Assembly: GCA_040235405.1 (NCBI GenBank) | Contig: JBECKT010000051.1 | Location: 6,879-70,878, forward strand | Direction: 5' to 3' | Source of the DNA: Alcanivoracaceae bacterium | GTDB lineage: Bacteria; Pseudomonadota; Gammaproteobacteria; Pseudomonadales; Alcanivoracaceae | Length of the DNA: 64,000 nucleotides | Part shown: piece after piece, positions 36,184 through 63,145 of the stretch | How positions within the stretch are numbered: the stretch's first letter is position 1 | Layout of the letters: the number at the start of each line of letters is the position of its first letter | Translations under genes and position numbers: made by a program | The notes under the pieces: generated by a model | Database searches by the model: none | What the model was told of the DNA's origin: nothing | The model's input: only the letters and a program-made list of their open reading frames with translations

Positions 36184-36241
36184 GAGCGGCCGAGCGGCCG
36201 CGATTGTTTCCGGGGTATCGCCGTCGGTCGACGGTTCCTAC
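36181..36241. repeat. REP-like composite palindromic element, copy A
   Basis: TAGGAGC-GCGGCCGAGCGGCCGC-spacer-GCCGTCGGTCGACGG-TTCCTAC. It shares its architecture and most bases with the copies at 61605 and 63146. Confidence 0.8.
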
Positions 36242-37314: not shown

Positions 37315-37392
37315 AACCTGCCTCCACGCGATCACCGCGTTTTATCTGTTGCCTGTGGCCAAGTATAGCCATGACCGGTCAAGGGCGTGTCA

Positions 37393-40182: not shown

Positions 40183-42489
40183 ATGTCTGCCCTGTCGATT
40201 CCCCGTCCCCGCACCAGCCTGTTCGGTTACCCCCGATACTGGGCGGAATGCTTTGGCACGGCGCCGTTCCTGCCGATGTCCCGGGCGGAGATGGACCAGC
40301 TTGGCTGGGATTCCTGCGACATCATCATTGTCACCGGCGATGCCTATGTCGACCATCCGTCATTCGGCATGGCAATTGTAGGCCGTTTGCTCGAAGCTCA
40401 GGGGTTCCGGGTCGGCATCATTGCCCAGCCGGACTGGACCTCGAAGGACGCCTTTATGGCGTTGGGCCGGCCGAACCTGTTCTTCGGCGTCGCTGCCGGT
40501 AACATGGATTCGATGATCAATCGCTACACCGCTGATCGCAAACCACGCTCCGACGACGCCTATACCCCGGGCGGCGAAGCCGGCAAGCGCCCGGACCGCT
40601 GCTCGCTGGTGTACTCGCAGCGCTGCAAGGAAGCCTGGTCGGATGTGCCGGTAATTCTCGGCGGCATTGAGGCGTCACTGCGCCGCATTGGCCATTACGA
40701 TTACTGGCAGGACAAGGTGCGCCGTTCCATCCTGCTCGACGCCACCGCTGATCTGTTGCTGTATGGCAATGCCGAACGCGCCGTGGTCGAAGTGGCCCAT
40801 CGTCTGGCCCGCGGCGAAACCATCGACAGCATCACCGATGTTCGCGGCACTGCCTTTATCCGTCGCGACACGCCGGAAGGCTTCTGGGAAATCGATTCCA
40901 CCCGAATCGACCGACCCGGCCGGGTTGATCGCATCATCAATCCCTACGTCAACACCCAGGAGATGGATGAATGTGAAGTGGAACGCCGTAACAACCCGAT
41001 GCTCGGCGTCAGCATCAACGACAACGGCGAACAAGTGGTGCAGTTGCTGCCGCACCCGAAACTGAAACGCGACCAGACCGTGATCCGCCTGCCATCGTTT
41101 GAAAAGGTACGCAACGATCCGGTGCTGTATGCCCACGCCAGCCGGGTACTGCATCTGGAAACCAACCCGGGCAACGCCCGCGCGCTGGTCCAGCGTCATG
41201 CTGAAATTGATGTCTGGCTGAATCCGCCGCCGATTCCGCTGACCACCGAAGAAATGGATTACGTATTTGATCTACCTTACGCCCGCTCGCCGCACCCGGC
41301 TTACGGTGATGCGAAAATTCCGGCCTGGGACATGATCCGCTTTTCCGTCAACATCATGCGCGGCTGCTTCGGTGGCTGCACCTTTTGCTCGATCACTGAG
41401 CACGAAGGTCGCATTATCCAGAACCGCTCGGAAGAATCGGTGCTGCGCGAAATCGAACAGATCCGCGACAAGGTCAAGGGCTTTACCGGCGTGATTTCCG
41501 ATCTCGGCGGGCCCACTGCAAACATGTACCGGATTGCCTGCAAAACCCCGGAAATCGAGGCAGCCTGCCGCAAGCCGAGCTGTGTTTATCCGGGCATCTG
41601 CGAAAATCTCAACACTGATCATTCGCACCTCACCCAGCTGTACCGCAAGGCGCGTAATATCAAGGGTGTGAAAAAAATCCTGATCGCTTCCGGCTTGCGT
41701 TACGATCTGGCAGTGAAAGACCCGGAGTATGTGCGCGAGCTGGTGACGCACCATGTCGGCGGTTATCTGAAGATTGCCCCGGAACATACCGAGCAGGGGC
41801 CGCTGTCGAAGATGATGAAGCCAGGTATCGGTTCCTACGATATTTTTCGCGAGATGTTTGAACGTTTTTCAAAAGAAGCCGGCAAGGAACAGTACCTGAT
41901 CCCCTACTTTATCGCTGCCCACCCGGGCACCACCGATGAAGACATGATGAATCTCGCACTATGGCTGAAGCGCTACGGTTTCCGTGCCGATCAGGTGCAG
42001 GCGTTCTATCCATCGCCGATGGCCAGCGCCACCGCCATGTATTACTCCGGCAAGAACCCGCTGCGCCGGGTGACCTATAAAAGCGATGCCATCGAGTCAC
42101 CGAAGACACCGGAGCAACGCCGCCTGCACAAGGCGTTCCTGCGTTACCACGACCCGAGAAACTGGCCGCTATTGCGCGAGGCACTCAAGCGCATGGGCCG
42201 TGCTGACCTGATCGGTGACGGCAAGCATCAACTGATTCCGAAAACCCAGCCGACCGATGCCCGCGACTATCAGGCGCCACGGCGAAAAAATTCCAGCGAT
42301 GCCCACCAGCGTCGCACCGGCCCCGGCAGCGCGCCGGCCAAAGGCAAGATCCTGACCCAGCACACTGGCCTGCCTCCGCGCGAGCAAACTGCCGACAAGG
42401 CAAGGCCTGCTGGCAGAGCAGCCAGTGGCGGGCGCAAGCCGCCGGGAAGTCCGCGCCAGCGGCCCGGTAAAAACAGAACACCCCACTAG
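40183..42489 (+). CDS. ygiQ: YgiQ-family radical SAM protein (UPF0313)
   Basis: [36 protein letters not shown], radical [12 protein letters not shown], and a basic low-complexity C-terminal tail. Start chosen at ATG 40183. Confidence 0.9.
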
Positions 42490-43736
42490 CGGGAACCATT
42501 AAACTGACGCATGGCGCGGAGAAACTCCTCGGCGCGGAAACGATGCTGATCCGACAGGCTCTGGTACAGGCCGTCCAGCGCCGCGCTATCACCCTGCAAT
42601 TGCTCGGTCAGCAATGCCATCAGCATCAGCACCTGCTCGGCGGTCATGTAGTCGTTAAAGGTTGCATCCAGAGTGTCTGCCTTCATGCGCTGGAGCAGCC
42701 GCCCGGCATCCGGGCCAGACAACTTGCCATTACGCAAGCGCACCAGAGTGTCATCAAGCTGGCGAATCAGTGCGCCACTGGCCTGCTGGATCGCCTCGCG
42801 GCCCTGCTGACTGGCGCCATGCAAACCGGCGACGCCGGTTTTCCAGCGCGCTGCGGCAGCCGGATCACTTGCCTCCAGCATCCAGCCCACCATCAGCAAA
42901 CTGCTGTCATTCAGCCGTACCGCGCCGGGCCGCAACTTGCCGGCGGCGCGTGGCCGCCATTTATCCGCATTCATCGGTGCATGGCAGGCGTGGCAGTCGA
43001 AGAATGCCAGCTCCGGCCACAGCGGCGTTGCCATAAACTGCTGGCCGCGCAAACCCTCGAGCACGTTGCGGGCGCTACGCAACTGCCCGGCCACCCATAG
43101 CTGCAGGGATTGCGGCGACTGTTTGCGGGCACGGTAAGCATCATCATCACGATGATGTGATGGCCACAGCCGGCTGTAGGTGGCCAGCTCGAACTGCAAC
43201 CGCGGGTGCCCGGCGCCCATGATGTCGTGACTGGCAAGCCGCTCACTGTCGCCGACGTGGCAAGCAACACAGACCGAGGCACGCACATCGGCATCCTGCA
43301 ACAGTGTCAGACCGCGGGCGATATTGTCCTCGTGGGTGACCCCCTTCTCCGTATGCGAGGACAGCCAGCGCCGGGAGCCACCGTGACAGGCTTCACAACC
43401 GACACCATCGGTCAGCTGGAAACGCGGGCCGCGTTGTTCCTTCGGCACATAATCACTGTGGCAAGCAAGACAGACCTTCGCTTCGTGAGCCGGACCGATA
43501 CCGAGCTTGGTAGCAATTTCCTTCGAATCACTATTGAGCAAAGTGTTGTAAGCGCCGGCATGAGGATCACGCTGCCCCCAGATCACATACTCGCTATGAA
43601 AAATATTGGCGCCACTGCGCTCGGTGCTGCTGCCATGGCAAACCGAAGAGGCACAACTGGCCACGCCCATATGTTTGTCTGCGGCCAGCACAACCCCGGT
43701 CACAACCAGCAACCCGAGCAGGATGAATCGTTTCAT
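42486..43736 (-). CDS. Periplasmic multihaem c-type cytochrome (4 CxxCH + 1 CxxxxCH) with a helical non-haem C-terminal half
   Basis: Signal peptide [18 protein letters not shown]. Motifs CASSVCH (CX4CH), CLACH, CEACH, CVACH and CHACH. The ATGA start/stop overlaps the upstream gene. Confidence 0.8.
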
Positions 43737-46700
43737 CGTTTGCCTCCGCTGCGGCTGACCTTGTCACTGACAAACCAGGGCTCACCCTTTTCATTCAGGA
43801 ACAGGCGGCGCATTTCTTCCAGTGTGAAAGGCCGCGAGCCATGCCGACCGAATACCGCCACCTGACCACCGGTCTCATCCACCGCCCGATCACGCTCAAG
43901 TCCACGTGACAACGACAACGCCGGATAGCGGGTTTTCGCCCTGGCGATCAACTGCGGCACCGGGGCCGGATTGAAGCCGTAGAAATTCGGCTGACTGGCC
44001 GGCGATGTTAACTGAAGCACTTTGAGGCCACCCTCACCATCGGCCACATAGGCAAATGCAGACGCATTGGTGCTGGCCACGATCACATCATGACTGTCCT
44101 GCAAGGCGCCCTCGGCAGTGAAGCGTTGATACAGCGACAGCTTCTCCGGATTCTCCATATCAATGATGACCAGACCATCCTTGCCGGCCGCAACATAGGC
44201 ATAAGCCCGGGCAATATGAATACCACGGGCCTGATCCAGGGCGATGGTGTTGTCCGGAATCAGGCTGGCCTGCTCCGGCAAGGTCACATCAATAGCGCTG
44301 ACACCACCGGCATGGCTGACCAGCAGATAGCGGAACTGCAAGGCACTGGCACGGACATCCTCAAGAGCAATCTGCCTCACCAGCTTCGGCGCCAATGGCT
44401 CATCCAGATTCAGTATCACCAGCGCCTTTGGTGTAGCGATATAGGCATAATGGCCACCGAGAATGACATGGCGGGCACCGTCCAGTACCCCGTTTTCATT
44501 CCAGGTAACGGCGCGCTCAAGGTGATTATTACGGAACTCGCCATCGGCAAAGGTGGTGATATCGGCAAGGATCAAACCTTCCTCGGCATCGGTAATCACC
44601 GCATAGGAATAGATCGGGTGGAACGGCTGCTCAAGGTTTTCCACTCGCATCAGGTCGCCGACGTTACGCTGTGGCGCCACCGGCTGGGTGGTCGCCAGTG
44701 CCATGCAGGTAGCGTTACGGCTTGGCACCCTGGCGTTGTGACCCAGCGGGCTGAACGGCGCGGTAATGATCCGCTGCGAGACGCCCTTGTTATCAATGCC
44801 GGCGATATCGTAAACGCGGAAGCCGTTCTTGCCTTCGGCGACATACAGATACTCACCGCGCATCTGCACACAACCGGCTCGATCACCGGCATGGCTGTAC
44901 TGCTCCGGCAAATCCAGATCACGGCGCAAGTGCTGCTGATACCAGTCCGGGTAGGCATAGCGATGCAGGTAGGAACCGTAAACGGCTTGCGGCTCGTCCC
45001 ACTCGGTCACCGCCACCGCCTGCAAACCACCCTCACCGCCCACCCAGGCAAACCGGCCGACAAAGTTGATGTAGTTGGTACCAAGCATCAACAGCTGCGC
45101 CATGATCGCATTGTTGTCATTGTCTTCGGACAGATGGCAATCGGTACAGGTCTTGGTTTCCGTACGCCGCTCGGTATGCGGATAGTGCGGATTAAATGCC
45201 TGTGAGCTGTAACCACTGGCCGATACCGGCGGCTGCTGGATATAGATGCGTTCACGGTTCGAGTTGGTAGAGCTTAATACCAATGCCGAGGTAGAACGGG
45301 TCGGCGCAATTCTGGCGTCATGCACCGGGCCACGCTTGCCGAGCATAAACATTTCGTCACGCGCCACCTGCGGATTGTAGGTGGCGTAGTTGCGGGTTTC
45401 TCCGCCTTCGTAATGATGTCGTTCGGTTTTCCAGTTCGCCTCAATCGGCAGGTGGCAGCCGCCGCAGGAGGTAGTCCAGGAGGTGTGGCAGGTATAACAC
45501 TCGAAGTCCTCGTCACGGTGGGCCCGCTGGCCGGATTTTACCGACAGCCCCCACGCCAGCGAGTTGGTATCGCGGCTCATCAGCTTGGCCCGGGCCGCCT
45601 TGGCATTGTACTGACCATGTTTCGGATTGACCGAGTCCTTGACCAGACTCATGGTCCACTCCAGCCCCGGCGTCAACAACGAACGCTGAATCAGTTTGCC
45701 GTTAACCCATTCAAAGCGCTTTTTACCATCCGGGTTGCGCAGTATCGACAGGTCCTGACCACCGGCTGGCGCGGCAGCGCCACTGGTGCGCAGGCTCGGA
45801 TAACTGTCCGCAGTGCCATGGCAGTCCTTGCAGCCAATTTCCACGGCATGACCTACCTCGCCGTACAGATGGCCATTGCCATGGCTGTCCTGACTGAAGT
45901 GGCAGTCCACACAGTGCATGCCGACATCGACATGAATCGAGGAAAGGTGCACCGCCTTCTTGAATTTTTCCGGATCCTCGGCAGAGACCTGATCGCCTTC
46001 GGCATCGAGCAGATTGCCTTCCCGGTCACGCTTGAACACCGCCCGGAAATTCCAGCCATGGCCATGGTAGTCGGCAAACTGGGTGTCTTTCAGCTTCGGG
46101 TTCATCTCCCAGACTGATGAGAGGAAATTCAGATCCCGCCATTTGCCGCGCGCCACCGCCCCTTCCGGATTGCGATCATAGACATCGCGCATTTCCTCGT
46201 CGCTCGGATAATGCTGCTTCTCCGGCCACATGAACGGCGCATCGGCTTCGTAATCCCACATGGTGTAACCGAGGTAGGTGTTCATGAACATGTTCGGCTG
46301 GTGCATGTGACAGACCATGCACTGGCTGGTGGGAATGGCGCGGGTAAACTGATGCTGGATCGGATGACCCGGCTCGTCTTTCGGAATCAGCGGGTCACGG
46401 CTGGCGCTTAATCCCCAGTGGCCATGTTTGGCATAGGGACCGCTGTGGCGCGGATCGCGATCATTGCCATACACCACATGGCAGGAGGCGCAGCCGGAGC
46501 TGCGGTAGTCGCCGGGCTGATCATTGGAGCCAAGGAACCACATCAGCGGATCATTGAGACGGGTTTTAGTGATATTGATCAGCGGCACGGCAATCCGTGC
46601 ACCAGTGCCGGCACCGCGATTCGATTGCTTCACATCCGGCCGGCCCGGTTCCTCCAAACGCTGGATCTGACCAAGTGAATTGGGAATGCCGATTTCCGGG

Positions 46701-47479
46701 AACAGGCTGTTGATATTGCGGCCACCGTCTTCGAACACCCGGAACACATCGGCGGGCTTGACGGTTTCCCAGGCCGGCAGCGGCAGCAGCGTTTTCAGTG
46801 CGCCGAAGCGATGGCTCATGTCTTCTGTCGGCACCATCAGTGGCGTGACCGCTGCCGGTTGTCCGTCGCGGCTATAGGCCTCGCCCAGGATGTAGCGCTT
46901 GTACGGCAAAATGCCGTTGTTATAGGAGGCGCCGCCCCAGAGCATGGCGCCGGTGGCCATAATTGAACGCTCGGCAGCAAGAATCTGCGGCATATGACAA
47001 CTGCCGCAGGCTTCACGAACAATGCGGTAATCGGACGGATTGACGAAGCGGATATATTCCGGCGCTTCCTTGTTCAGCAGGGTGTAACTGATCGGTGGAT
47101 TACTGCTGCGCGGCCAGCGCCATTTGTCGGCATAGTCTGGCAATACATGGGCCTGCTTCATCGCTTCCATAAAGGCCGGATCATCGCGATTGCTGTTCGC
47201 CGGCTTCTGCACACCGGCATTGCCACCATGACAATCGGTGCAGCCCAGGACCACCGCCGGGTTGGCGTGCATGGTCTTGCTATCGGAAGCGCCGTGACAG
47301 CTGCCGCAGCCACTGCTTTTGCGTACCGCTTCGGCGGGTGATTGCCAGGCCGGTGCCGATGGCGCTGCCACCCGGTTTTCCTGCTTGACCACCGGCGCCT
47401 CTACCGCCGGCAACAAAACAGGCAACAACAGCATTAGTGCCGTCATCCATGCCTGCCAGAGCTGAAGTCCGTGTCTCAT
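43733..47479 (-). CDS. Secreted decahaem c-type cytochrome fused to a C-terminal LVIVD-repeat beta-propeller
   Basis: Signal peptide. Ten CxxCH motifs: CGSCH, CTDCH, CGSCH, CASCH, CMVCH, CVDCH, CKDCH, CYTCH, CGGCH, CTDCH. In the last ~450 aa there are at least 6 LVIVD-type repeats (YLYVAEGKNGFRVYDI, EEGLILADIT, YAYIATPKALVILNLDEP, AYAYVAAGKDGLVIIDMENP, AFAYVADGEGGLKVLQL). Confidence 0.85.
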   Translation of the reverse strand: MRHGLQLWQAWMTALMLLLPVLLPAVEAPVVKQENRVAAPSAPAWQSPAEAVRKSSGCGSCHGASDSKTMHANPAVVLGCTDCHGGNAGVQKPANSNRDDPAFMEAMKQAHVLPDYADKWRWPRSSNPPISYTLLNKEAPEYIRFVNPSDYRIVREACGSCHMPQILAAERSIMATGAMLWGGASYNNGILPYKRYILGEAYSRDGQPAAVTPLMVPTEDMSHRFGALKTLLPLPAWETVKPADVFRVFEDGGRNINSLFPEIGIPNSLGQIQRLEEPGRPDVKQSNRGAGTGARIAVPLINITKTRLNDPLMWFLGSNDQPGDYRSSGCASCHVVYGNDRDPRHSGPYAKHGHWGLSASRDPLIPKDEPGHPIQHQFTRAIPTSQCMVCHMHQPNMFMNTYLGYTMWDYEADAPFMWPEKQHYPSDEEMRDVYDRNPEGAVARGKWRDLNFLSSVWEMNPKLKDTQFADYHGHGWNFRAVFKRDREGNLLDAEGDQVSAEDPEKFKKAVHLSSIHVDVGMHCVDCHFSQDSHGNGHLYGEVGHAVEIGCKDCHGTADSYPSLRTSGAAAPAGGQDLSILRNPDGKKRFEWVNGKLIQRSLLTPGLEWTMSLVKDSVNPKHGQYNAKAARAKLMSRDTNSLAWGLSVKSGQRAHRDEDFECYTCHTSWTTSCGGCHLPIEANWKTERHHYEGGETRNYATYNPQVARDEMFMLGKRGPVHDARIAPTRSTSALVLSSTNSNRERIYIQQPPVSASGYSSQAFNPHYPHTERRTETKTCTDCHLSEDNDNNAIMAQLLMLGTNYINFVGRFAWVGGEGGLQAVAVTEWDEPQAVYGSYLHRYAYPDWYQQHLRRDLDLPEQYSHAGDRAGCVQMRGEYLYVAEGKNGFRVYDIAGIDNKGVSQRIITAPFSPLGHNARVPSRNATCMALATTQPVAPQRNVGDLMRVENLEQPFHPIYSYAVITDAEEGLILADITTFADGEFRNNHLERAVTWNENGVLDGARHVILGGHYAYIATPKALVILNLDEPLAPKLVRQIALEDVRASALQFRYLLVSHAGGVSAIDVTLPEQASLIPDNTIALDQARGIHIARAYAYVAAGKDGLVIIDMENPEKLSLYQRFTAEGALQDSHDVIVASTNASAFAYVADGEGGLKVLQLTSPASQPNFYGFNPAPVPQLIARAKTRYPALSLSRGLERDRAVDETGGQVAVFGRHGSRPFTLEEMRRLFLNEKGEPWFVSDKVSRSGGKR

Positions 47480-47485
47480 AATGCC

Positions 47486-49216
47486 TCAGTACGTCAATAT
47501 CAGGTTGCCGAGAATCGAATAGCGCGAGTCCCGCTCGAACAGGTCGTCAAAACCTTCGCCGGGCAGCAACTGCGCCACCGACAAACGGCCGACAATGTTC
47601 TGGATCGCCAGCGGCCGCCAGATAATGGCAGCGGAAATATCCCAACCGATTTCCCGGTCGATATTGTCCTGCTGGCGTAACACCTCGATCACTTCGGTGC
47701 GATCAAAGGCAAGATGATTGGCGTTGAAACTGAGCCGGGCAGTCGGGGTCAGGTCCAGATCGGCACCAACACCGAGCAACCGCAGTCCCGGATTGGTGAA
47801 GTTGGACTGGCCGTGCTCTTTCGACGAACGCAGGTTCGGCAACAAACCATTACGCGTTGACAGGGTTACCCCGCCGCCGGCAATAAAGGGCACGCCCTGA
47901 CGGATCCAGAAGCTGGTGTCGGCACCGGCAATAATCGGGTTCTCGAACACCGCATCGAAGCCGGTCTCGACTTTATCAAACGGATTGCGATCACCGGAAG
48001 CATGCACACCGGTGGCGCGCAGACGAATCCAGTCAAAATCAATACCCGCTTCAAAGGCAGCAAAGCTGGCGCGCACCTCGGTGGTCTCATCGTTCATGAC
48101 CCCGGGGGCGTTGCGGCCACTGGCGGCGTACAACGACGTGGTCAGATTCAGGCGGCCAAGATGGCCATCACCGTTGTAACCCAGATAGGTGACGTCATAG
48201 CTGCGCGGCACTTCCCGGCCAAGCGAGGCGGGACGGGCAATAAAGCCGTTATCGTCATAGAAGAAACTGTCCTCCCGATTACGGTTATGCAGCAGGCTGA
48301 ACTGGCTGATAAACCCCAGCTTGAGAAAATCCTGCCAGTACAGGTTGGCAACGAAAACATCATCGTCGCGGAAACGGGCGGTAACATCGTTCAGGCCGCT
48401 GTTGGTGTCTTTTTCCAGACGCCGGAACCAGGCCAGGTTGTACTGGAAGATATTGTTGTCCCGGGTGCCGAACAGGCGCACACCGAACGGGCTGTCCTGA
48501 AACAGAAAGCCGCGAAAATCCGCATTGAACGGCTGGATGCCAACGCGAATACTGTCGAAGTCGTATCGGTCGGAGACATTACGGATGTGGTAGTCAACAA
48601 AAGCGCCCTGCACGCCGACATGGCCATCGGTACGGGTATCGCCGTCACGCGGGTCGATATACAGGGCACGGACCTCCTCCACCTCAGTGCGGTTGAAGTT
48701 AAACACCGGGATAAAGCGGAACTCCCAGTCCGGCGGTCGAAACACGGTATCGCCACGTAACCAGACCAGTTCCACCAACAGGTTCTGATTGAAAGTCACC
48801 TGCTCGCCACTGCCGAACACATCAATATCACCGCTGTCGCCGGTGGTCTGGTTGCCTACCGGGGTGGGAATATCACGCAGCTCCAGCACGGTATCGGATA
48901 CTGCGGTCAGCGAGAAGAACCATTCGCCCCGGACCGGCTTGTCACCCTTTAAGACATTACGTTGGTAGGGATTCCACAGGCTGTGGTTGTAACCCGGCAG
49001 GCTATCAACAATGCGCCAGCGATCCGGCACTGCCTGCAACGGCTGATCCTGAAACAGCGGCGCGGCGGGAATGGCATTGTCGTCGCACAGCACTTGCTGA
49101 CGCGCTTCAACCTTTTTGCCCGGCAGACGAATTTGCGGCTGCTGATCCGGCTCAGGACATTCCGCCTGTGCCAGCAGCGGCATCAGCAGCAACATGAAAA
49201 GCGGGAGGCGATGCAT
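47486..49216 (-). CDS. Probable outer-membrane beta-barrel protein
   Basis: Signal peptide MHRLPLFMLLLMPLLAQA. Alternating hydrophobic beta-strand patterning runs throughout, rich in aromatics, Gly, Asn and Asp. The C-terminus ends with an aromatic residue (...GNLILTY). I cannot assign a family with confidence. Confidence 0.6.
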   Translation of the reverse strand: MHRLPLFMLLLMPLLAQAECPEPDQQPQIRLPGKKVEARQQVLCDDNAIPAAPLFQDQPLQAVPDRWRIVDSLPGYNHSLWNPYQRNVLKGDKPVRGEWFFSLTAVSDTVLELRDIPTPVGNQTTGDSGDIDVFGSGEQVTFNQNLLVELVWLRGDTVFRPPDWEFRFIPVFNFNRTEVEEVRALYIDPRDGDTRTDGHVGVQGAFVDYHIRNVSDRYDFDSIRVGIQPFNADFRGFLFQDSPFGVRLFGTRDNNIFQYNLAWFRRLEKDTNSGLNDVTARFRDDDVFVANLYWQDFLKLGFISQFSLLHNRNREDSFFYDDNGFIARPASLGREVPRSYDVTYLGYNGDGHLGRLNLTTSLYAASGRNAPGVMNDETTEVRASFAAFEAGIDFDWIRLRATGVHASGDRNPFDKVETGFDAVFENPIIAGADTSFWIRQGVPFIAGGGVTLSTRNGLLPNLRSSKEHGQSNFTNPGLRLLGVGADLDLTPTARLSFNANHLAFDRTEVIEVLRQQDNIDREIGWDISAAIIWRPLAIQNIVGRLSVAQLLPGEGFDDLFERDSRYSILGNLILTY

Positions 49217-51147
49217 TATTTGCCTCCGCAGGGTGTCTGTTCATTGCTGTCGAGAAACGGTGCCTGCGGACACTGCACATAACGCAGCCGGGTGCCGTGC
49301 GGGGCCAGCTGGTCGGCGCGCATCATTACCGGCGCATTGTTGATGCTGCCAAGCAGCTCACCGGCCTGATGCACGGACAGAAACGAAATCATGTCATCCT
49401 GATCAATGCCGTCACCGGATACCCCAATGGCACCGACCAGTGTGCTGCCACGGTAGATCGGCACACTGCCGGGGAAAATCTGGGTGCCATTCGCCACCGG
49501 GTCGACATTGCCAGCGGATGTCACACGACTGATGGCGCTGCACCCCTCGGCGACATCAACACCACTCAGGCCGGCGGCAAAAGCAACATGACCAATAAGC
49601 TGGTTATAGACCAGATCCAGCTGCAGGCCGGTGGAGAACGGACTCCACTGCCCTTCCGGTTTCGATAAAGGTCCGGGCGGCGCACTGCGCAGACCATCCG
49701 GGAAATACGGCCGCGACAGATTACCGCCGGCGCGATCACTAAAAGCGTAGGCGCCATCGGCAAGCGCTGAAGGCAGATCCAGAAAGGTGCGTAGCGCATC
49801 AACGTAATCACCGATATCAACACTGGTTGCCACGGTCGGCGCACCAGCGACCAGTACCGGGCCAAGATAATCCGCCGTCGGCAGCGCCTGTAACTCTGCG
49901 GCCGCCTGCGTGCCTGAATAAAATGCAGCAGTACGCGCCTTCTGCAACGACACATCAGTACCGAACAGTGGCGCATCGCGGGTCCGCACCAGCCCCAGCA
50001 CCACACCATTACGATCCACCACACTGATGCTGACCCGTGCCTGACTTCCAAGTGGCCGACGAATCTGGGCCCGGGCGCGACTGGCAATCAACAGCGCCTG
50101 ATCCAGCACTGCAGTGACTTCAGTCTGGGTCAGCGCACCGGGGCCATCACTGGCGGCGACTGGCGGGAAGCGCGGCGTGTCGGTGGCATCTACCAACACG
50201 AAGGCATCGCGGCCGGGGAAAAAGTTTTCGGTATCGGCACGAATACCGGAACCGCTTTGGGTAAATGTCTGACCGGCGATAATGCCGCCACCGGCATTGA
50301 AGTAACCCGGCACACTAACCAGCGCACCGGTCAGACTGGCAAACGCCGGCACCGGCAGAGACCGGGTCTGCACCATCGCCACGCTCATATCGCTGTAACG
50401 CAGCTGCTTGCCTTCAACGGTGATGCGTTCGGCACGACGGTCCGCCGGCGCCAGCAAACCGCGACTACCAGCCAGCGCCACCACTTCATCCAGTGACTGA
50501 TCGCGATCAAACAGACTGTCATCGAAACTGTAGCGATCATCCACCACTACACCGATACCGCCGATAACGGTGCCATCGCGATACAGCGGGAAGCCGCCCG
50601 GATCAGCGGACAACCCCAGCGGAGCATGCTTGGGGCCGTGGCTGCCATCGGTCACACGCACCGTCAGATCGGAACAGGCCAGCTGGGAGAACTGCACGCC
50701 AAACAGGGGCCCGGCCGGCTGATTGCGCTCGCCCGGATTGAAATGCTCCTGCACGATCTGGCTGGCGGTGCGTGAACTGAAGGCATTGCCCTCGCTGGAC
50801 AGATAAGCGCCGGTGACCGCCTTGCTGATCGCTGCCAAGGTGGCCGGAATAAAGCTGATATTTTCCAGACCGCCGCTGACCGGATAGGGCGATGCAATAG
50901 TTACCGCATCAACTGCGCCAACCATCTGATACACGGCCAGAATATTGCCAACCCGGTCAGACACGGCAATGGTAGCCGCGACGCCACGCTGATCCGCCTC
51001 CAGTGCAGCCGCTGCAATAATGCTTTCGACATCCGCAGCGGAGAGAAAGCTGGCCGGGCTGACACAGCTGCCATCACAGCCGCCATTCGATAACGAATCG
51101 CCGCCACAACCGGCCAGCAGCAGACACAGCCCGATCAGCCGTTTCAC
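49216..51147 (-). CDS. Lipoprotein with two tandem GlcG/HbpS-like (DUF336, haem-binding/haem-degrading superfamily) domains
   Basis: Lipobox LLLAGC after a GTG start. Domain 1: ATIAVSDRVGNILAV...GGFPLYRDGTVIGGIGVVVD. Domain 2: SISVVDRNGVVLGL...LQKARTAAFYS...GSVPIYRGSTLVGAIGVSGDGIDQDD. Compare E. coli GlcG: GGVPVVVDGQIIGAVGVSG. Confidence 0.7.
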   Translation of the reverse strand: MKRLIGLCLLLAGCGGDSLSNGGCDGSCVSPASFLSAADVESIIAAAALEADQRGVAATIAVSDRVGNILAVYQMVGAVDAVTIASPYPVSGGLENISFIPATLAAISKAVTGAYLSSEGNAFSSRTASQIVQEHFNPGERNQPAGPLFGVQFSQLACSDLTVRVTDGSHGPKHAPLGLSADPGGFPLYRDGTVIGGIGVVVDDRYSFDDSLFDRDQSLDEVVALAGSRGLLAPADRRAERITVEGKQLRYSDMSVAMVQTRSLPVPAFASLTGALVSVPGYFNAGGGIIAGQTFTQSGSGIRADTENFFPGRDAFVLVDATDTPRFPPVAASDGPGALTQTEVTAVLDQALLIASRARAQIRRPLGSQARVSISVVDRNGVVLGLVRTRDAPLFGTDVSLQKARTAAFYSGTQAAAELQALPTADYLGPVLVAGAPTVATSVDIGDYVDALRTFLDLPSALADGAYAFSDRAGGNLSRPYFPDGLRSAPPGPLSKPEGQWSPFSTGLQLDLVYNQLIGHVAFAAGLSGVDVAEGCSAISRVTSAGNVDPVANGTQIFPGSVPIYRGSTLVGAIGVSGDGIDQDDMISFLSVHQAGELLGSINNAPVMMRADQLAPHGTRLRYVQCPQAPFLDSNEQTPCGGK

Positions 51148-52820
51148 GGCATCACCTCGGGCAGGTCGGCATGATCCAGTTCAAACTGGTGATAGTTGTG
51201 ACAGCTGATGCAACCGGAAAGCAGCCCCTGCTTCTGCTGCTGGCCGACATGACATTCCTGACAGACGGCAATGTCCGGCATCAACACATCTGCAGTCTCC
51301 ATGGACTCGTTGGCGGCATGGCAGTCGGCGCATTCGGTTTGGGTGTGACGAACATGGGGAAATTCGCCGGAGACAAACCAGTTTTCATTCAGCCGTACCG
51401 GTTTGACAAACCACTGGGGCGGCTGCTCGCTGACCCTGTCCACTTCATGACAGCTGACACAGGCACGGCGCTCGAACATATCCTCTGCCACCGCCTGACT
51501 CTTTTTTTCCACCCAGGCGACGCCTTCGCGCTGCAACTGGCTGAGGTTATCGCGCTGGCCCGGTCTTAATGCCCGGATATCACCGGCGTCAGCGCGGTCC
51601 TGGATAAAGCGGCTGCTGTAGTACTCACGCAGATTAGCCAGCACCTGATCCGGCTTACCATGCGGCACGACCCGATTCGGATCGACTGGATCAAACGCCA
51701 GGCCATGGCAGCGGGCACAGTGTTGCTCCATCTTCACCGGCGCCATGTTAATGCCGTCCAGTGCCATCTCATGGCAACTGTCGCAACTCAGCACTTCCCA
51801 GTCGCCGTCATTATTCTTGATGCCTTCGACATCCAGATGCCCGGCGTGATCAAATTTCAGGTTGCTGTTATCGTGCAGGGATTCATCTACCGTCAGCCGC
51901 GGGCTCTGCAACCACTCGCGACTATCGTCCTGCCACTGCAGCATGCTCAGGCGGAACGCTGGATGATCGGCATGGAAGTCCGTTGCCTTGCCGACCTGTG
52001 GCTCACTGCCCATGCGCTGGTCAAGGCTGGCATGGCAATCGGCACAGAAGCGCTGATCCTCAAACACCATGCGCTGCTCGCCGTTATGTTCATGATGACA
52101 AGAGGCACAGCGCTCGCCATCAAACAGACCGGCATCCGGATGCCCTGCCGGCACATGCAAAGCGGTTTCTTCATGACAGGCAACGCAGGTATCGTTGCTG
52201 ACTTTCTCAAACGGTTTGGTGTGACAGGCCTGACAATCCTTGCCAATGGTGCTGTGCACCGAATGCAACTCGCCACTCAACCACAGGCTGTCATCCGGCA
52301 ACGGCGTATTACGCAGCACATTCTGAAATTCCGGCTTTAGCGTCACCAGTGCCGGCAACAACAGCGCTGCAACCAGCAACACAAGGAACAGCGCCCAGGC
52401 CCAGCGACGCGGACGCCAGAGCGTCAATGCATCCAGCCGGGTAACAAACTTCGCCGGATCAATCGACGGCGCTTCCTGTTGCTCCAGCACCTCCAGACTG
52501 AGCGCCAGATCAACACCGTCCGGCGCGGCAATCACGATCAGGCGATAGTCACCGATCAGGATCTGGTCACCGGTATTCAGCACCGCCATCTTGCAGCTGC
52601 GACCATTTACCGTGATGCCGGTACTGGCCAGCGCACGAATCCGGAACTGACCGGCACTCAGGGAGATTTCCGCGTGCTGGTAGGCAACCCGGTCGCCGGG
52701 CAACAACAATTCCTGATCGGTACCACGACCTATGCTGAGCTGATCAACCGCCAGCTCTTCATCCTTGTAGCTTCGATTCTGACCGCTGCCAGCGCCGAGA
52801 CGGCGTATCAATACATACAT
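51144..52820 (-). CDS. FHA domain - single TM helix - periplasmic decahaem c-type cytochrome
   Basis: N-terminal FHA-like LSIGRGTDQELLLPGDRVAYQHAEI...ITVNGRSCKMAVLNTGDQILIGDYRLIV. TM helix RRWAWALFLVLLVAALLLPALV (positive-inside). Ten CxxCH motifs: CQACH, CVACH, CASCH, CADCH, CDSCH, CARCH, CVSCH, CADCH, CQECH, CISCH. The start is ATG 52820 or TTG 52850. Confidence 0.8.
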   Translation of the reverse strand: MYVLIRRLGAGSGQNRSYKDEELAVDQLSIGRGTDQELLLPGDRVAYQHAEISLSAGQFRIRALASTGITVNGRSCKMAVLNTGDQILIGDYRLIVIAAPDGVDLALSLEVLEQQEAPSIDPAKFVTRLDALTLWRPRRWAWALFLVLLVAALLLPALVTLKPEFQNVLRNTPLPDDSLWLSGELHSVHSTIGKDCQACHTKPFEKVSNDTCVACHEETALHVPAGHPDAGLFDGERCASCHHEHNGEQRMVFEDQRFCADCHASLDQRMGSEPQVGKATDFHADHPAFRLSMLQWQDDSREWLQSPRLTVDESLHDNSNLKFDHAGHLDVEGIKNNDGDWEVLSCDSCHEMALDGINMAPVKMEQHCARCHGLAFDPVDPNRVVPHGKPDQVLANLREYYSSRFIQDRADAGDIRALRPGQRDNLSQLQREGVAWVEKKSQAVAEDMFERRACVSCHEVDRVSEQPPQWFVKPVRLNENWFVSGEFPHVRHTQTECADCHAANESMETADVLMPDIAVCQECHVGQQQKQGLLSGCISCHNYHQFELDHADLPEVMP

Positions 52821-52824
52821 GGCA

Positions 52825-53715
52825 TCACCAGTAGAAGAACACGCTGACAATATGCGCCGTCAGCGTTGCCAGCAGTGCCAGCGTCAGCGGGATATGGCAG
52901 TACAACCAGATCTCCATCAGCCCCTGCAGACGGATATCTTTAAGTAACTGTTTCACCAGTCTGGCTTTACGCGAGACCAGATCGATCAGCTCCTGCAGCA
53001 GCGCCGCTTCCTTGGGATCCGTGCTGCGTGACAGCAACCCGGTCAACTCATCCAGTAAGCGTTGCTGGTGCGAATTACTGACCCGCTTCCAGCTCTTCTG
53101 CTTTTTCCTGACCTCGCTGATCATCATTCGCGAACGGTCACGCCCACCGAGTTGCTGCCAGACGCCACCGCCAACCTGAAACAATTGAATGGCGGAAATC
53201 ACCATCCGGTCTGCCGGTGAGCCGAGACCTTCAACAATCAGACTGGCCTTGCGATCAATATCGGCAATCTCGCGGAAGATCAGATCGCGAGTCATGCCAT
53301 CACGGTTGCGGGTAATACGATTCGGGTAACGCCAGTACACCCAGCCACCATAAAAGCCGCTGACGATAACCAGCACCATCAACAGCCAGGCCAGTGTGTG
53401 AATGTTCAAACCAAACTGAAAGCCGCTATGCAGCGTGCCCACCACCAGCAGTGAACCGCCCAGGTAAACGTGCGCAGACAACCAACCCTTGACGCTGCCG
53501 ATACGTGAGTAATAGGCGCGCTTGCGCACCCCGAACAGGGTCAGCCAGACAATCAGCAATGCGGCAATAGTGCCAAGGGTATAACCCAGCCAGGTACCGC
53601 CATTAGGCAACCCGATCGGTTCGTGCCAGACGTAGGCAACAACACTGGCCAGTACCAGCACCAGCGCAAACCAGAACCAGAAGCCGCCACGGTGAGAGAG
53701 GAAAGAGCCGTGCAT
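52825..53715 (-). CDS. Five-TM membrane protein with two H-x13-H pairs (candidate di-haem cytochrome b)
   Basis: The ATG at 53715 lies 7 nt after GGGAGGA. TM3 is AHVYLGGSLLVVGTLH (His codons at 53470-53472 and 53428-53430). TM5 is CHIPLTLALLATLTAH (His codons at 52894-52896 and 52852-52854). A ~130-aa soluble helical loop lies between TM4 and TM5. Confidence 0.6.
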   Translation of the reverse strand: MHGSFLSHRGGFWFWFALVLVLASVVAYVWHEPIGLPNGGTWLGYTLGTIAALLIVWLTLFGVRKRAYYSRIGSVKGWLSAHVYLGGSLLVVGTLHSGFQFGLNIHTLAWLLMVLVIVSGFYGGWVYWRYPNRITRNRDGMTRDLIFREIADIDRKASLIVEGLGSPADRMVISAIQLFQVGGGVWQQLGGRDRSRMMISEVRKKQKSWKRVSNSHQQRLLDELTGLLSRSTDPKEAALLQELIDLVSRKARLVKQLLKDIRLQGLMEIWLYCHIPLTLALLATLTAHIVSVFFYW

Positions 53716-53717
53716 GC

Positions 53718-56099
53718 TCAATCCTCCCTGACCAGTTCAATAAACTGCTCCGGACTGATCCGCACCGCCGCGCCGGTCGGGCAGGCGCGCACACAGGCCG
53801 GGCCACCCTTGAGGTTGGCACACATGTCACACTTCACTGCTCGCTTCGGTGCGTCCTTGGCCTTGACCTTTTTGTGCTCGGCGCCGAACAGCACCCGGCT
53901 CCACAGCCCCGGCTGGGAACCACCGATCGGCGCCATCTGGATCACACCATAGGGGCAGTTGCTTTCACAGTTACCACAGCCGATGCAGTTGTCGGCAATC
54001 ACCACCTCGCCACTGGCATTACGACTGATCGCATCCGGCGGGCAATCTTTCATGCAATGCGGATGTTCGCAGTGACGACAGGAAGTCGGCACATGGATTG
54101 AGGCATAGCTTGGCCCGGCCTCACGATTCAGCCGCGAGGTACCACCGTGGGTGGAAGCGCAGGCGGTCTCACAGTTATCGCAACGCACGCACAGGGATTC
54201 GTCGATCAGCAACACATCGGTGGCTTCGCCCAGACCCTGACGCATCAGGAACGACAGCAGCTCACCACCTTCCGAGGAAGATTCCATGCTGGCATTGGCA
54301 CGCAGCCGCGCCTGCAGCTGCGTCTGCACCTGCGCCTTCAGTTTCGGGTCTCGCTCCAGCAAGGCGAGGAACGGCTCGCTTTTCATGACCACGGTTTCGG
54401 TCGGCACCACGGCGCGTACCGAAGCGGTACGGCGGGAATTACCAAGCAACCCCATTTCACCGACATATTTGCCCGCCGGCACATAGGACAGCACCACCTC
54501 GCGGCCTTGCAGGTAACGGGAAACCGTCAGTGAACCACGCCGCACCAGATGCAGCTCGTCACCGCTCTCGCCTTCGGCGAACAGGACCTCGCCGGGAGCG
54601 TACTGACGCAGCTCTGCCGAGTTCACCAGATCGGCCAGATCCTCCAGATTGGCGTTCGGCGCAAACTGGGAATGAATCGCACGCAGGATAAACACCTGAT
54701 CAATCCGCCGCCGCACTTCATCCACCGACGACAGCAATCGCAACATGGTCCGGCGCGGGGTTTCCACCAGCACACAATAGCGACCGGCATAAACCGTGGC
54801 ATTACGACGCCGGCCGGAAATCAGGCCCATCTCGCCAAAGAACTGACCTTCGCCAATGGTAACCCGTTTGCCGGTCTGTTCATCAATCTCGACCTCCACC
54901 GAACCTTCCACGACTGAGTAGAACGAGTTGGTGTAGTCATTGCGAGAGAAGATCACCTCGCCCGCCTTCGGCATGTGCACTTCGCTTTCCAGAATCAGCT
55001 CACGGAAACGCAGGCTGTTGACGGGACCGAAACAGAGCACATTGTTTTTGATCTTCTCCAGCGTCTGCTCGACGTCCAGTCCGAATGGCAAGCCAGAGAA
55101 CTTCTTTGCCAGCAAGCCATGATCCACCGGCTTGATATCGCGACCGAGAATATGCTCGATCACTTCATAACCCTGATTCATGGCCTGCTTGATCAGCGGA
55201 TAACCAGCCAATGCGCCGATCACATACAAGCCCGGCACATTCGATTCGTACTGATGAGTCAGTTCCGGCACCGCATTGGTTGATTTATTGGGAAACTGGA
55301 TGCCACAGGATTCGACAAAATCACGCGGCGGAATAGCGCCCAACCGGGCAATGATCCGATCCACTGGCACCTGCACTTCACCTTCGCCGGTACTCAGCGA
55401 CACCTGGGCCCGATGCTCACCATTACCCTGCACTTCAATACTACGCAGACTGCTGTTGAAAAATACCCTGATACGGCCGCGCTCAATGGCATCCTCAAGC
55501 AGGCTCAGGTTTCCTTCTTTGGCACGGGCAAATTCGTCGCGGCGATTGATCAGCGACACCTTGTTCTGGCGGGCCAGTGCCAGCGCGTTTTCAATCGCCG
55601 AATCCCCGGCGCCGACCACCATGATTTCTTCGTTCTGATATTCGTCCGGATCATCCAGCTGGTATTGCACAAATGGCTGGTCTTCACCCGGCACACCGAG
55701 CTTGCGTGGATTACCCTGCAGACCAATGGCCAGCACCACATGCTTTGCTCGCACGCTTTTGCCGCTGCGTGTCTGCAGCACGAAATCACCGCGTTGGCCA
55801 CTGATGGCCGTGACATCAGCATTCCAGCCAACCTTGATGCCAAGTTTTTTGGCATTCTTCAGCCAGACGGCAAGGATGTCCTCACGACTGCCAGCATCAA
55901 ATGGCAGGCTGCTACGCAACGGCAGAAGGCCTGGCTCCGCCATGACGTGCTTGCCTTTCTGATAGCGCTGAATGGTATTGGCCAGATGGGTCGTGCTTTC
56001 CAGCAACAGGTGCGACAACCCCAGTTCAGCGGCACGGCCAGCGGCGCTGAGGCCCGCCGGGCCGGAGCCGACAATAACAACTTCAAAACGGTTTTCCAT
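53718..56099 (-). CDS. Cytoplasmic fusion protein: FAD/NAD(P)-dependent pyridine-nucleotide-disulfide-type oxidoreductase + 2 cyclic-nucleotide-binding domains + four-cluster [4Fe-4S] ferredoxin
   Basis: Dinucleotide motifs VVIVGSGPAGLSAAGRA and IMVVGAGDSAIENA. cNMP motifs FFGEMGLISGRRRNATVYA and YVGEMGLLGNSRRTASVRA. Cys motifs CVRCDNCETAC, CRHCEHPHCMKDCP, CIGCGNCESNCP and CDMCANLKGGPACVRACP. No signal or Tat motif. Confidence 0.85.
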   Translation of the reverse strand: MENRFEVVIVGSGPAGLSAAGRAAELGLSHLLLESTTHLANTIQRYQKGKHVMAEPGLLPLRSSLPFDAGSREDILAVWLKNAKKLGIKVGWNADVTAISGQRGDFVLQTRSGKSVRAKHVVLAIGLQGNPRKLGVPGEDQPFVQYQLDDPDEYQNEEIMVVGAGDSAIENALALARQNKVSLINRRDEFARAKEGNLSLLEDAIERGRIRVFFNSSLRSIEVQGNGEHRAQVSLSTGEGEVQVPVDRIIARLGAIPPRDFVESCGIQFPNKSTNAVPELTHQYESNVPGLYVIGALAGYPLIKQAMNQGYEVIEHILGRDIKPVDHGLLAKKFSGLPFGLDVEQTLEKIKNNVLCFGPVNSLRFRELILESEVHMPKAGEVIFSRNDYTNSFYSVVEGSVEVEIDEQTGKRVTIGEGQFFGEMGLISGRRRNATVYAGRYCVLVETPRRTMLRLLSSVDEVRRRIDQVFILRAIHSQFAPNANLEDLADLVNSAELRQYAPGEVLFAEGESGDELHLVRRGSLTVSRYLQGREVVLSYVPAGKYVGEMGLLGNSRRTASVRAVVPTETVVMKSEPFLALLERDPKLKAQVQTQLQARLRANASMESSSEGGELLSFLMRQGLGEATDVLLIDESLCVRCDNCETACASTHGGTSRLNREAGPSYASIHVPTSCRHCEHPHCMKDCPPDAISRNASGEVVIADNCIGCGNCESNCPYGVIQMAPIGGSQPGLWSRVLFGAEHKKVKAKDAPKRAVKCDMCANLKGGPACVRACPTGAAVRISPEQFIELVRED

Positions 56100-57632: not shown

Positions 57633-58439
57633 ATGATTCCGCTGACCTCAACCCCCGACCAGACCACCGCGCTGAATGCCGTCCTGGAACGTCCTGGCAT
57701 CTGGCGCGGCCGCCCTGCCGCCAATACCGAGCTGGCCAGCGACAGCGGCTTCCCTGCCCTGAATGACGCCCTGCACCTGCGTGGCTGGCCGGCGGCCGGG
57801 CTGGTCGAGCTGCTTTGCAGTGGCCCCTGCCCACAGGCTTTGCGGCTGATGCTGCCGGTCATGGCCAGCCGGGCCGACGGCCTGGTACTACTGGCCAACC
57901 CACCGGCCCGGCCACGCGCGGAAACCCTGCAACAGGCCGGCATCAAGAGCCAGCGCCTGCTGGTGATGCGCAGTGAACGTCAGGACACCTTGCTGCAGGC
58001 CTGTCACGAAGCGCTCGCCAGTGGCGCCGTCAGCACACTGGTGATCTGGCTACCGGAAAACATGGACGACCAGACCAGCCTGCGGCGCCTGCATCTGGCC
58101 GCCCGCGAAGGTCGCTGTCTGCTGGTGGCCATGCGCCCGGCCAGCGTTGCCGATCGTCCCTCCCCGGCCAGTTTGCGCCTGCGCCTGCGGGCGCAACCGC
58201 CGGCCCATCTGGCGGTGGATGTGATCAAGCAGCCTGGCGGCTGGGGTGGCCAGCAGATCCATCTGGCCCTGCTGCCGGAACGCCTGAGCCAGCCACTGGC
58301 GGCCAGCCGTGATATGCCGGCACCGCCGCGGCTACGGGAAAAACAGAAAGCCGCACCTGGCTACCGCGACCCGGACAGCCGTTTTGCCTGGCGCCGCCCG
58401 GCAGCGACGCTGCCCAGCCTGCAAAACCTGCCGTTCTGA
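57633..58439 (+). CDS. imuA: Translesion-synthesis-associated protein ImuA (SulA/RecA-fold-like)
   Basis: GIWRG...SGFPALNDALHLRGWPAAGLVELL is typical of ImuA. It is first in the imuA-imuB-dnaE2 arrangement. Confidence 0.75.
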   Translation: MIPLTSTPDQTTALNAVLERPGIWRGRPAANTELASDSGFPALNDALHLRGWPAAGLVELLCSGPCPQALRLMLPVMASRADGLVLLANPPARPRAETLQQAGIKSQRLLVMRSERQDTLLQACHEALASGAVSTLVIWLPENMDDQTSLRRLHLAAREGRCLLVAMRPASVADRPSPASLRLRLRAQPPAHLAVDVIKQPGGWGGQQIHLALLPERLSQPLAASRDMPAPPRLREKQKAAPGYRDPDSRFAWRRPAATLPSLQNLPF

Positions 58440-58469
58440 TTTGTTGCATGACATACCCGGCGGTGGTCC

Positions 58470-59939: not shown

Positions 59940-59941
59940 CC

Positions 59942-62900: not shown

Positions 62901-63145
62901 GACCGGGCTCAGCGTCCGGAGTGATGTTTGTCACCCTCGAAGATGAAACCGGCAACAGCAATGTGGTGGTCTGGCAGAACGTGCAGAAGCAGTATCGACG
63001 CGAACTGCTCGGCAGTTCACTGGTGCTGGTAACCGGCACGGTGGAACGCAGCCCGGAAGGCATCGTCCATCTGATGGCAGGCAGGATTGAAGATCAGCAA
63101 ACCGCATTACAGCAACTGACCGTGCAATCCCGCGATTTCCACTGA
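59942..63145 (+). CDS. dnaE2: Error-prone DNA polymerase DnaE2 (Pol III alpha paralogue)
   Basis: PHP domain start FAELHCRSAFSFLTGAS, VFQVESRAQMNMLPRLKP, IVRPGPIQGDMVHPYL and a C-terminal OB fold. It contains an in-frame REP-like element at 61605..61663. Confidence 0.93.
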   Translation: MKKSARGFAELHCRSAFSFLTGASQPEELVARAAALGYQALAITDECSLAGIVRAHQAAREHSLKLITGSQFRIEDNESDKPLNLILLVPQRQAYSELCALISRGRRRGEKGQYQLHWKDLTRLVQRCLCLWLPAFDRQQDLDQGTRLKAHFPDRLWIACELLQEEHDGARYQYLWQLASALDLPMLASNDVHMHVAERQPLQDVLTALRYRCTVQTLGRRRFLNDQRHLRPLAALSEIYPQALLAESLHIAGLCQFSLSELRYQYPREAIPAGISAADWLRQLVYQGAALRWPNGAPNGVHSLLEKELALISELRYEAYFLTVHDIVMFARNQHILCQGRGSAANSAVCYCLFITEVDPSRSQLLFERFISRERDEAPDIDVDFEHERREEVIQYIYRKYGRNHAALAATVIRYRMRSAVRDVGRALGMDMAILDQLSRNLAWWDKREELPQRFREAGLHDTSLTRHYLTLVNQLLGFPRHLSQHVGGFVITHEPLHTLVPVENAAMIDRTIIQWDKDDLESIGLMKVDVLALGMLTAIRKMLDLINQTHTSGAVGAVDRRREDFAADRPLLQGNQSSTPPLTLQNIPPEDPATYAMLQKGDSVGVFQVESRAQMNMLPRLKPERFYDLVIEVAIVRPGPIQGDMVHPYLRRRNNEEAVDYPDARIKGVLERTLGIPIFQEQVIQLVMVAAGFSGGEADQLRRAMASWGKDGTLFRFEDKVIQGMLKNGYSLDYANRIFEQMKGFGGYGFPESHAASFALLVYVSAWFKRHHSSAFYCGLLNSLPMGFYSPSQLLQDARRHGIEVRPPDSDHSHWDYTLENSERLALGVQPAIRIGLRQISGFNMEAADRIVAARQQQPFSNIQDLCSRANLNRNERECLVAANAVRRLSGHRHQGYWDMLGVEESRPLFGKEQHDIRDGIFLDAPSEMDTMLADYRALSLTTGRHPLALLRHQEPFRSACSAATLRKARHGQLVRVAGLITNRQRPGSASGVMFVTLEDETGNSNVVVWQNVQKQYRRELLGSSLVLVTGTVERSPEGIVHLMAGRIEDQQTALQQLTVQSRDFH
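61605..61663. repeat. REP-like composite palindromic element, copy B (inverted orientation, inside the dnaE2 ORF)
   Basis: CTGTAGGAGC-CGTCGATCGACGG-CGAGAAGATTTCGC-GGCCGATCGGCC-GCTCCTACAG. Its reverse complement aligns almost base for base with copy C. Confidence 0.8.

Follow-up and report, generated by a model that had tools for sequence, protein, structure and literature searches.

Related gene clusters and the Alcanivoracaceae locus

An unannotated, conserved inner-membrane protein (IMP) of ~300 amino acids (aa) was described by He et al. in 2017 (Front Microbiol, PMC5566968) from putative PCC3 and PCC4 porin-cytochrome clusters, with five transmembrane (TM) helices, an SGXXG motif on TM4, and the motif WX3HX13H on both TM3 and TM5. 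The authors likened it to the ferric reductase domain (FRD) and to cytochrome b and predicted that it holds two b-haems (PMC5566968). In subgroup II of PCC4, the gene of an iron-sulfur (Fe-S) protein of family PF13247 lies 5' of the IMP gene, and the two were once annotated as fused (PMC5566968). A nonahaem-cytochrome cluster of Ferrigenium straubiae encodes a [4Fe-4S] protein, a 5-TM protein, and an FHA-anchored multihaem cytochrome; in that preprint, the TM protein is described as being without a redox motif, and the combination of FHA with a multihaem cytochrome is called unreported (bioRxiv 10.64898/2026.01.22.701106). Here we analyze a 5-TM protein of this kind from an Alcanivoracaceae bacterium, encoded on the reverse strand of a 64,000-nucleotide stretch of contig JBECKT010000051.1 (assembly GCA_040235405.1), hereafter the window.

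The window protein has 296 aa and five TM helices, carries W78-x3-H82-x13-H96 and W270-x3-H274-x13-H288, both conserved family-wide, and holds an SGXXG motif on TM4 (S119-G120-F-Y-G123). Its gene has a PF13247 gene upstream and, downstream, one gene for an outer-membrane protein and three that are rich in CxxCH. Since the protein agrees with the published description of IMP, the original prediction, which had read the gene from its sequence as a candidate transmembrane di-haem b relay, is a rediscovery. We found no experimental follow-up of the di-haem prediction of He et al. in the literature, where this kind of protein is known as a prediction only. The locus differs from PCC4 in the haem counts of the neighboring proteins, with 10, 10, and 4 CxxCH motifs in the window compared with 4, 5, and 10 in PMC5566968. 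He et al. proposed quinone coupling in Fe(II) oxidizers, whereas the FAD, cNMP, and FHA domains, the fusion, and the occurrence in aerobic heterotrophs were not discussed. The Ferrigenium straubiae cluster contains the same three-gene module, and Gallionellaceae loci with this module were recovered in our analysis; there, however, the module is on its own, with no porin, HbpS-like, or LVIVD genes.

We consider it probable that the window protein is a di-haem b-type cytochrome forming the membrane-spanning middle of a three-protein wire, similar to NOX and other FRD proteins, through which electrons most likely pass from NAD(P)H outward. The conservation of four His, the similarity to di-haem b families, and the Fe-S partner all support a transmembrane relay of predicted b-haems. 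To the published account, we add the size of the family, the shared register of its Gly and His residues, a weak link to PF01292, a genuine fusion, a bioenergetic argument for outward flow, and the finding that the FAD/cNMP/FeS and FHA partners form a constant core.

Histidine pairs, membrane topology, and family relationships

The translation holds SAHVYLGGSLLVVGTLHSG on TM3 and YCHIPLTLALLATLTAHIV on TM5, which contain H82/H96 and H274/H288, respectively, and the four His codons were confirmed on the DNA (53470-72, 53428-30, 52894-96, and 52852-54). The two His of each pair lie 14 positions apart (H82-x13-H96 and H274-x13-H288), so that both H-x13-H pairs of the original prediction stand as they were placed. 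Two such pairs, both within TM segments, arose in 0.05% of 200,000 shuffles of the protein (frequency 0.0005), which argues that they are more than chance, and the stronger argument is their conservation throughout the family. A profile search of 1.84 billion cluster representatives recovered 3,304 clusters (50% identity) at E<=1e-3 and 332 at E<=1e-30, and the family was present in at least 595 GTDB species genomes; the homologues number in the thousands, all of them unnamed and without a Pfam domain. Among 124 near-full-length representatives, mutually <=50% identical, H82 was kept in 123, H96 in 124, H274 in 116 (6 gaps), and H288 in 117 (4 gaps). Conservation among homologues had been proposed as a check on the relay, and the four His proved essentially invariant.

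Several other positions are conserved to a similar degree, with W78, G86, N104, H106, G120, G123, P131, W270, G48, and G62 kept in 94-100% of the representatives (W78, G86, G120, G123, and W270 in at least 95%) and the basic loop R64-K65-R66 in 91-98%. Position 119 is S in 105 of the 124 representatives and T in 17, G120 is invariant, and G123 is found in 123. On TM2, G48 and G62 share the 14-residue register of the His pairs. With G120 and G123 on TM4, this gives a pattern like that of mitochondrial cytochrome b, in which the two di-His helices alternate with two helices that carry small residues at the levels of the haems. A fifth His, H106 (53398-53400, reverse strand), is kept in 121 of the 124 representatives at the periplasmic start of TM4, at the end of the stretch G98-F99-Q100-x-G102-x-N104-x-H106, and could belong to a quinone site, contact a haem propionate, or contact the decahaem protein. 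A DsbD-like thiol relay was rejected because the family has no conserved Cys, C273 being variable.

Hydropathy and the AlphaFold helices agree on five TM helices (Table 1), in keeping with the small 5-TM protein first proposed, and the chain ends 2 residues past TM5. K/R residues number 5 in loop 62-76, 27 in the insert that joins TM4 to TM5, and 0 in loops 30-42 and 97-105; from these counts, we predict an N-in, C-out topology in which the insert and the 62-76 loop are cytoplasmic and TM3 and TM5 are parallel, each leading outward from the cytoplasm to the periplasm. The insert spans 138 aa, is mostly helical, and is basic (27 K/R to 16 D/E), matching the charged helical loop of ~130 aa that had been noted between these helices. 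TM1 is probably peripheral to the haem bundle, because little of it is conserved apart from Y28. The AlphaFold model built from 114 sequences was confident (pLDDT 95.5, pTM 0.88) and contains no cofactors; in a model built from 20 sequences, the membrane part was poor (pLDDT 71), and the Foldseek matches of that model are meaningless.

The window protein matched no Pfam or NCBIfam model, and Pfam, NCBIfam, and PDB hold no entry that covers the 5-TM family. Individual Pfam scans of 114 members (alignment A2) returned recurrent weak matches that fall on di-haem cytochrome b families only, namely PF01292 in 96 members (best E 3.8e-8), DUF4405 in 32, and Ferric_reduct in 12, which we take to form one Pfam clan of two-haem cytochromes. 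With a PF01292 gathering threshold of 30.1 bits, the window protein scored 10.1 bits and the best member among the matches listed 26.0, and the family consensus with the loop deleted aligned with positions 13-165 of the 179 in the model at 29.6 bits (E 7e-7). Because the weak hits recur and the insert-deleted consensus falls just under the PF01292 cutoff, remote homology to the di-haem b superfamily is likely, with scores below those of curated-family membership. For PF01794 (gathering score 28 bits), the 12 matches among the 114 members were weak (best E 0.001; one example at 17.4 bits), and PF02665 (NarI) was unmatched by the window protein at E<=0.1 and lay outside the 25 most frequent families of the 114 members at E<=1. 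All Pfam matches were thus below threshold, in line with the original prediction, in which the protein was not recognized as a member of any of the named families. A DUF3732 match was rejected as noise (17.6 bits against a cutoff of 25, spanning 23 residues of TM5).

In the arrangement of its His, the window protein is closest to the FRD (PF01794; NOX, FRE, and MsrQ), in which two bis-His b-haems are held by two His each on TM3 and TM5, both His helices run from the cytoplasm to the outside, and a flavin/NAD(P)H module in the cytoplasm donates the electrons. H82/H96 and H274/H288 likewise lie ~13 residues apart on parallel TM3 and TM5, and docking may take place at the cytoplasmic TM2-3 and TM4-5 loops. 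The window protein differs from the FRD in having five TM helices instead of a six-TM core, a 138-aa insert in the TM4-5 loop, a separate Fe-S flavoprotein as donor, and a multihaem cytochrome c as acceptor. PF01292 (FdnI, HyaC, and CybB) provides the best remote sequence match, and its members partner four-cluster ferredoxin subunits. In FdnI and HyaC, the haem ligands are a single His on each of TM1 and TM2 plus a His pair on the last TM helix, whereas the 5-TM family is without a conserved His on TM1 or TM2; its di-His helix is also oppositely directed in the membrane, and the window protein has an extra helix and the large insert. The putative ligand pattern of two plus two His on outward TM3 and TM5 is of the FRD type and not of the FdnI/HyaC type. 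NarI, DsrM, and HdrE are five-TM di-haem subunits that similarly exchange electrons with a cytoplasmic Fe-S protein, but no sequence similarity to them was detected, and their His ligands are distributed differently on the helices.

Iron-sulfur partner and gene arrangement

Counted from ATG, the 5-TM gene occupies the coordinates given in the original prediction; a TTG start would extend the open reading frame (ORF) to 52825-53721 on the same strand. We favor the ATG because a GGAGGA Shine-Dalgarno sequence lies 7 nt upstream. The stop codon of the upstream Fe-S gene is separated from this ATG by 2 nt, and the stop codon of the 5-TM gene is separated from the ATG of the FHA-decahaem gene by 4 nt. 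By these gaps, the three genes are tightly coupled, and the placement first given, between an Fe-S protein gene and a membrane-anchored decahaem gene, is borne out.

The upstream gene contains Fer4_11 (PF13247). Its product has an N-terminal TrxR-like FAD/NAD(P) domain without the redox CxxC, followed by the two cNMP-binding domains and a C-terminal domain in which 16 Cys form the four ferredoxin motifs (residues 637-773). The protein is without a signal peptide and is therefore cytoplasmic, and by its domains it looks like an NAD(P)H-to-FeS wire, or NAD(P)H:ferredoxin-type reductase. The combination of FAD, cNMP, and four-cluster domains suggests a cyclic-nucleotide-gated electron output.

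In each of the 134 loci spanning both genes, the Fe-S gene lies immediately 5' of the 5-TM gene, and where a locus reaches far enough, the FHA-multihaem gene nearly always comes next. Gamma-, Alpha-, and Betaproteobacteria and Magnetococcales are represented among the loci. The full seven-gene order is kept in dozens of Gamma- and Alphaproteobacteria, and Gallionellaceae and Magnetococcales have the core only (FeS, 5-TM, and FHA-multihaem genes), the Gallionellaceae loci (L086-L095, L099, L103, L111, L121, and L154) carrying this core without the outer-membrane genes. At other loci (L132-L138, L146-L151, and L156-L157), mostly from Burkholderiales or other Betaproteobacteria and including two from Arenimonas, the FeS gene follows the c554-like gene, and the 5-TM gene lies beyond the range examined. 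A search of genome contigs with the divergent member P0266 for placement in a PCC3-type cluster found nothing.

Three metagenome-assembled genomes (MAGs) of Magnetococcales, 74-100% identical to one another, encode the Fe-S and 5-TM proteins as one in-frame polypeptide of ~1,110 aa, with ~25 residues between the last Fe-S motif and the start of the 5-TM part. The fusion shows that the two proteins work together, and, independently of the K/R counts, its short linker requires the N-terminus of the 5-TM protein to be cytoplasmic, which puts H82 and H274 on the Fe-S side. Together with the strict synteny, the fusion confirms the cytoplasmic Fe-S partner of the original prediction. Apparent fusions at L003, L041, and L068 were rejected as ORF artefacts of truncated or high-GC contigs, and only those at L083-L085 are genuine.

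Downstream, the neighbor first described as a membrane-anchored decahaem protein does contain 10 CxxCH motifs by our count. In more than 100 loci, a gene for an FHA-TM-multihaem protein of this kind stands downstream of the 5-TM gene as its constant partner. The 576-aa outer-membrane protein further along is presumably the porin of the conduit. The 1248-aa LVIVD protein is the best conserved of the operon (60-69% identity across classes), and the operon as a whole encodes 24 CxxCH sites. A ferrochelatase gene (36238-37335, reverse strand) lies ~5 kb past the end of the cytochrome operon, with radical-SAM and DUF945 genes between; any connection with haem supply would be speculative. Directly upstream of the operon, on the opposite strand (57633-63145, forward), are genes for a 268-aa protein of no family, a Y-family polymerase-like protein with an IMS domain, and a DnaE-type polymerase, an arrangement that looks like an imuA-imuB-dnaE2 mutagenesis cassette.

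Table 1. Coordinates of the 5-TM gene, its segments, and the associated genes; positions are those of the window except for the fusion ORFs, which are given by locus
Feature	Position	Strand	Details
5-TM protein gene	52825..53715	-	stop codon TGA 52825-52827; alternative TTG start at 53721
Ribosome-binding site GGAGGA	53723..53728	-	7 nt 5' of ATG; within 3' end of upstream Fe-S gene
TM1, residues 12-30	53626..53682	-	in to out; little conserved except Y28
TM2, residues 42-64	53524..53592	-	out to in; carries G44, Y45, G48, G62
TM3, residues 75-97	53425..53493	-	in to out; W78-x3-H82-x3-G86 ... H96
TM4, residues 105-127	53335..53403	-	out to in; H106, S119-G120-x-x-G123 (SGXXG), conserved Y127
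Cytoplasmic insert (predicted), residues 128-265	52921..53334	-	helices and one beta-hairpin; pLDDT >90
TM5, residues 266-294	52834..52920	-	in to out; W270-x3-H274-x-P276 ... H288
Partner 1, Fe-S flavoprotein, 793 aa	53718..56099	-	Pyr_redox, two cNMP_binding domains, four Cys4 ferredoxin motifs
Partner 2, FHA-decahaem protein	51144..52820	-	N-terminal cytoplasmic FHA, one TM, periplasmic domain with 10 CxxCH
Remaining conserved operon downstream of the FHA-decahaem gene	42486..51147	-	
HbpS-like lipoprotein	49216-51147	-	repeated HbpS-like (haem-binding or haem-degrading) domains
Outer-membrane protein, 576 aa	47486-49216	-	no Pfam family
Secreted protein, 1248 aa	43733-47479	-	10 CxxCH and LVIVD repeat (beta-propeller type)
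c554-like tetrahaem protein	42486-43736	-	
Fe-S/5-TM fusion ORF	L083:9893-13333		
Fe-S/5-TM fusion ORF	L084:3046-6423		
Fe-S/5-TM fusion ORF	L085:9947-13309		

Possible electron path, rival explanations, and significance

In the arrangement that we favor, an inner haem, close to the cytoplasmic face and accessible to the Fe-S chain, would be ligated by H82 and H274, and an outer haem, close to the periplasmic face and beside the decahaem domain, by H96 and H288. The small residues of TM2 (G48 and G62) and TM4 (G120 and G123) would allow porphyrin packing, and the outcome would be a four-helix, two-haem bundle with TM1 outside. The 138-aa insert and the R64-K65-R66 loop would dock the C-terminal four-cluster ferredoxin domain of the flavoprotein, the insert possibly acting as a platform on which the Fe-S protein and/or the FHA domain docks, and the stretch that runs from G98 to H106 would face the decahaem domain of the FHA-anchored cytochrome. 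Electrons would then pass from NAD(P)H through FAD and 4x[4Fe-4S] to the inner haem b and the outer haem b, and from there through 10 haems c to the HbpS-like, porin, and LVIVD-decahaem outer-membrane components, exporting cytoplasmic reducing power without quinone in the manner of NOX and FRE. The cNMP-binding and FHA domains are probably regulatory. We favor outward flow from NAD(P)H with moderate confidence because the donor is NAD(P)H:ferredoxin-reductase-like, many hosts are aerobic heterotrophs, and the inside-negative membrane potential would assist it; inward flow to NAD(P)+ is disfavored because both the membrane potential and the redox potential would oppose it. That the FeS-flavoprotein, the 5-TM cytochrome b, and the FHA-decahaem protein together make a quinone-independent, NOX-like wire that leads to a porin-cytochrome conduit of the outer membrane and is gated through cyclic-nucleotide and phospho-threonine signals is a proposal that we advance tentatively and doubt somewhat more than we trust.

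Several results weigh against a di-haem wire with outward flow. No member of the 5-TM family attains a Pfam gathering score, full-length sequence profiles retrieved from PDB only coiled-coil or designed helical proteins, by way of the insert, and a profile of the TM part alone retrieved nothing from PDB at E<=10. Comparisons by hhalign with single E. coli sequences of FdnI, MsrQ, and YodB gave insignificant probabilities below 1%; the alignment with FdnI sets H274/H288 opposite His155/His169 of its H-x13-H helix and is itself not significant. Foldseek of the confident 114-sequence model against PDB reached a best E of 0.27, with long-helix proteins only, a search that the cytoplasmic helical insert probably dominates and in which 3Di copes poorly with all-helical TM bundles. 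Gallionellaceae that oxidize Fe(II) carry the core module as well, and inward flow to quinone in Fe(II) oxidizers is favored by both He et al. 2017 (PMC5566968) and the Ferrigenium preprint (10.64898/2026.01.22.701106). In addition, the conserved polar Q100, N104, and H106 could form a quinone site, and the presence of cNMP and FHA domains could mean a sensor, not a bulk conduit.

The main rival, the quinone-coupled model put forward by He et al. 2017 (PMC5566968), has a di-haem cytochrome b that links the quinone pool to the periplasmic multihaem cytochrome by electron exchange, either oxidizing quinol or reducing quinone in the way of NarI, FdnI, and HyaC, with the Fe-S flavoprotein as an accessory or alternative input. 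It draws on the strongest of the weak homologies, that to PF01292, to which the quinone-reactive FdnI and HyaC belong, on the conserved polar stretch Q100-x-G-x-N104-x-H106 adjoining the position of the outer haem, and on the occurrence of the module in Fe(II) oxidizers. We nevertheless regard it as unlikely, since an obligate and sometimes fused Fe-S flavoprotein is unexpected for a simple quinol:cytochrome c module and the His are arranged two plus two on two parallel helices, not one plus one plus two as in FdnI and HyaC.

A non-redox scaffold that tethers the Fe-S protein to the FHA-anchored cytochrome, the role proposed for the five-TM protein of Ferrigenium straubiae (bioRxiv 10.64898/2026.01.22.701106), would suit a protein without an InterPro or Pfam family and with a large cytoplasmic insert that resembles a docking domain. 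Such a scaffold would not need four buried His in a 14-residue register with matching Gly, kept across more than 3,000 clusters, and without redox centers in the membrane the gap between cytoplasmic clusters and periplasmic haems would be too wide for tunneling; we hold this role to be improbable. Very improbable, in our view, is the handling of haem or metal in place of a redox relay, whether as an exporter or chaperone that supplies haem to the operon's three multihaem cytochromes (compare the TM His of CcsBA and CcmF) or as a metal-ion channel. In cytochrome c synthetases, His residues occur in TM segments and a periplasmic loop rich in Trp/Gly is conserved, and the likeness of the TM His, together with the 24 CxxCH sites of the operon, speaks for such a function, but no cytochrome c assembly family was matched in the Pfam scans, the protein has no WWD-type motif, and the fusion to or strict pairing with an NAD(P)H/Fe-S protein indicates electron transfer.

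A di-haem cytochrome b between the Fe-S flavoprotein and the FHA-decahaem protein is directly testable through its invariant His, its natural fusion, and cultured hosts such as Tahibacter aquaticus DSM 21667, Dokdonella immobilis, and Cognaticolwellia sediminilitoris. Because the family is large, absent from Pfam, NCBIfam, and PDB, and still described as having no redox motif in a 2026 preprint, its curation and biochemistry would change the reading of many genomes. The extracellular electron transfer known so far exits the inner membrane via quinol-oxidizing cytochromes, CymA, ImcH, and CbcL among them. If electrons went straight from NAD(P)H to a multihaem cytochrome by way of FeS clusters and two b-haems, they would bypass the quinone pool, and the transfer would dissipate the membrane potential and not build it, following a logic like that of eukaryotic NOX and FRE. 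If this is true, the 5-TM protein would represent a fourth kind of inner-membrane entry to extracellular electron transfer, beside CymA, ImcH, and CbcL, and one that is widespread in aerobic heterotrophs (Alcanivoracaceae and Lysobacterales) and in iron oxidizers.

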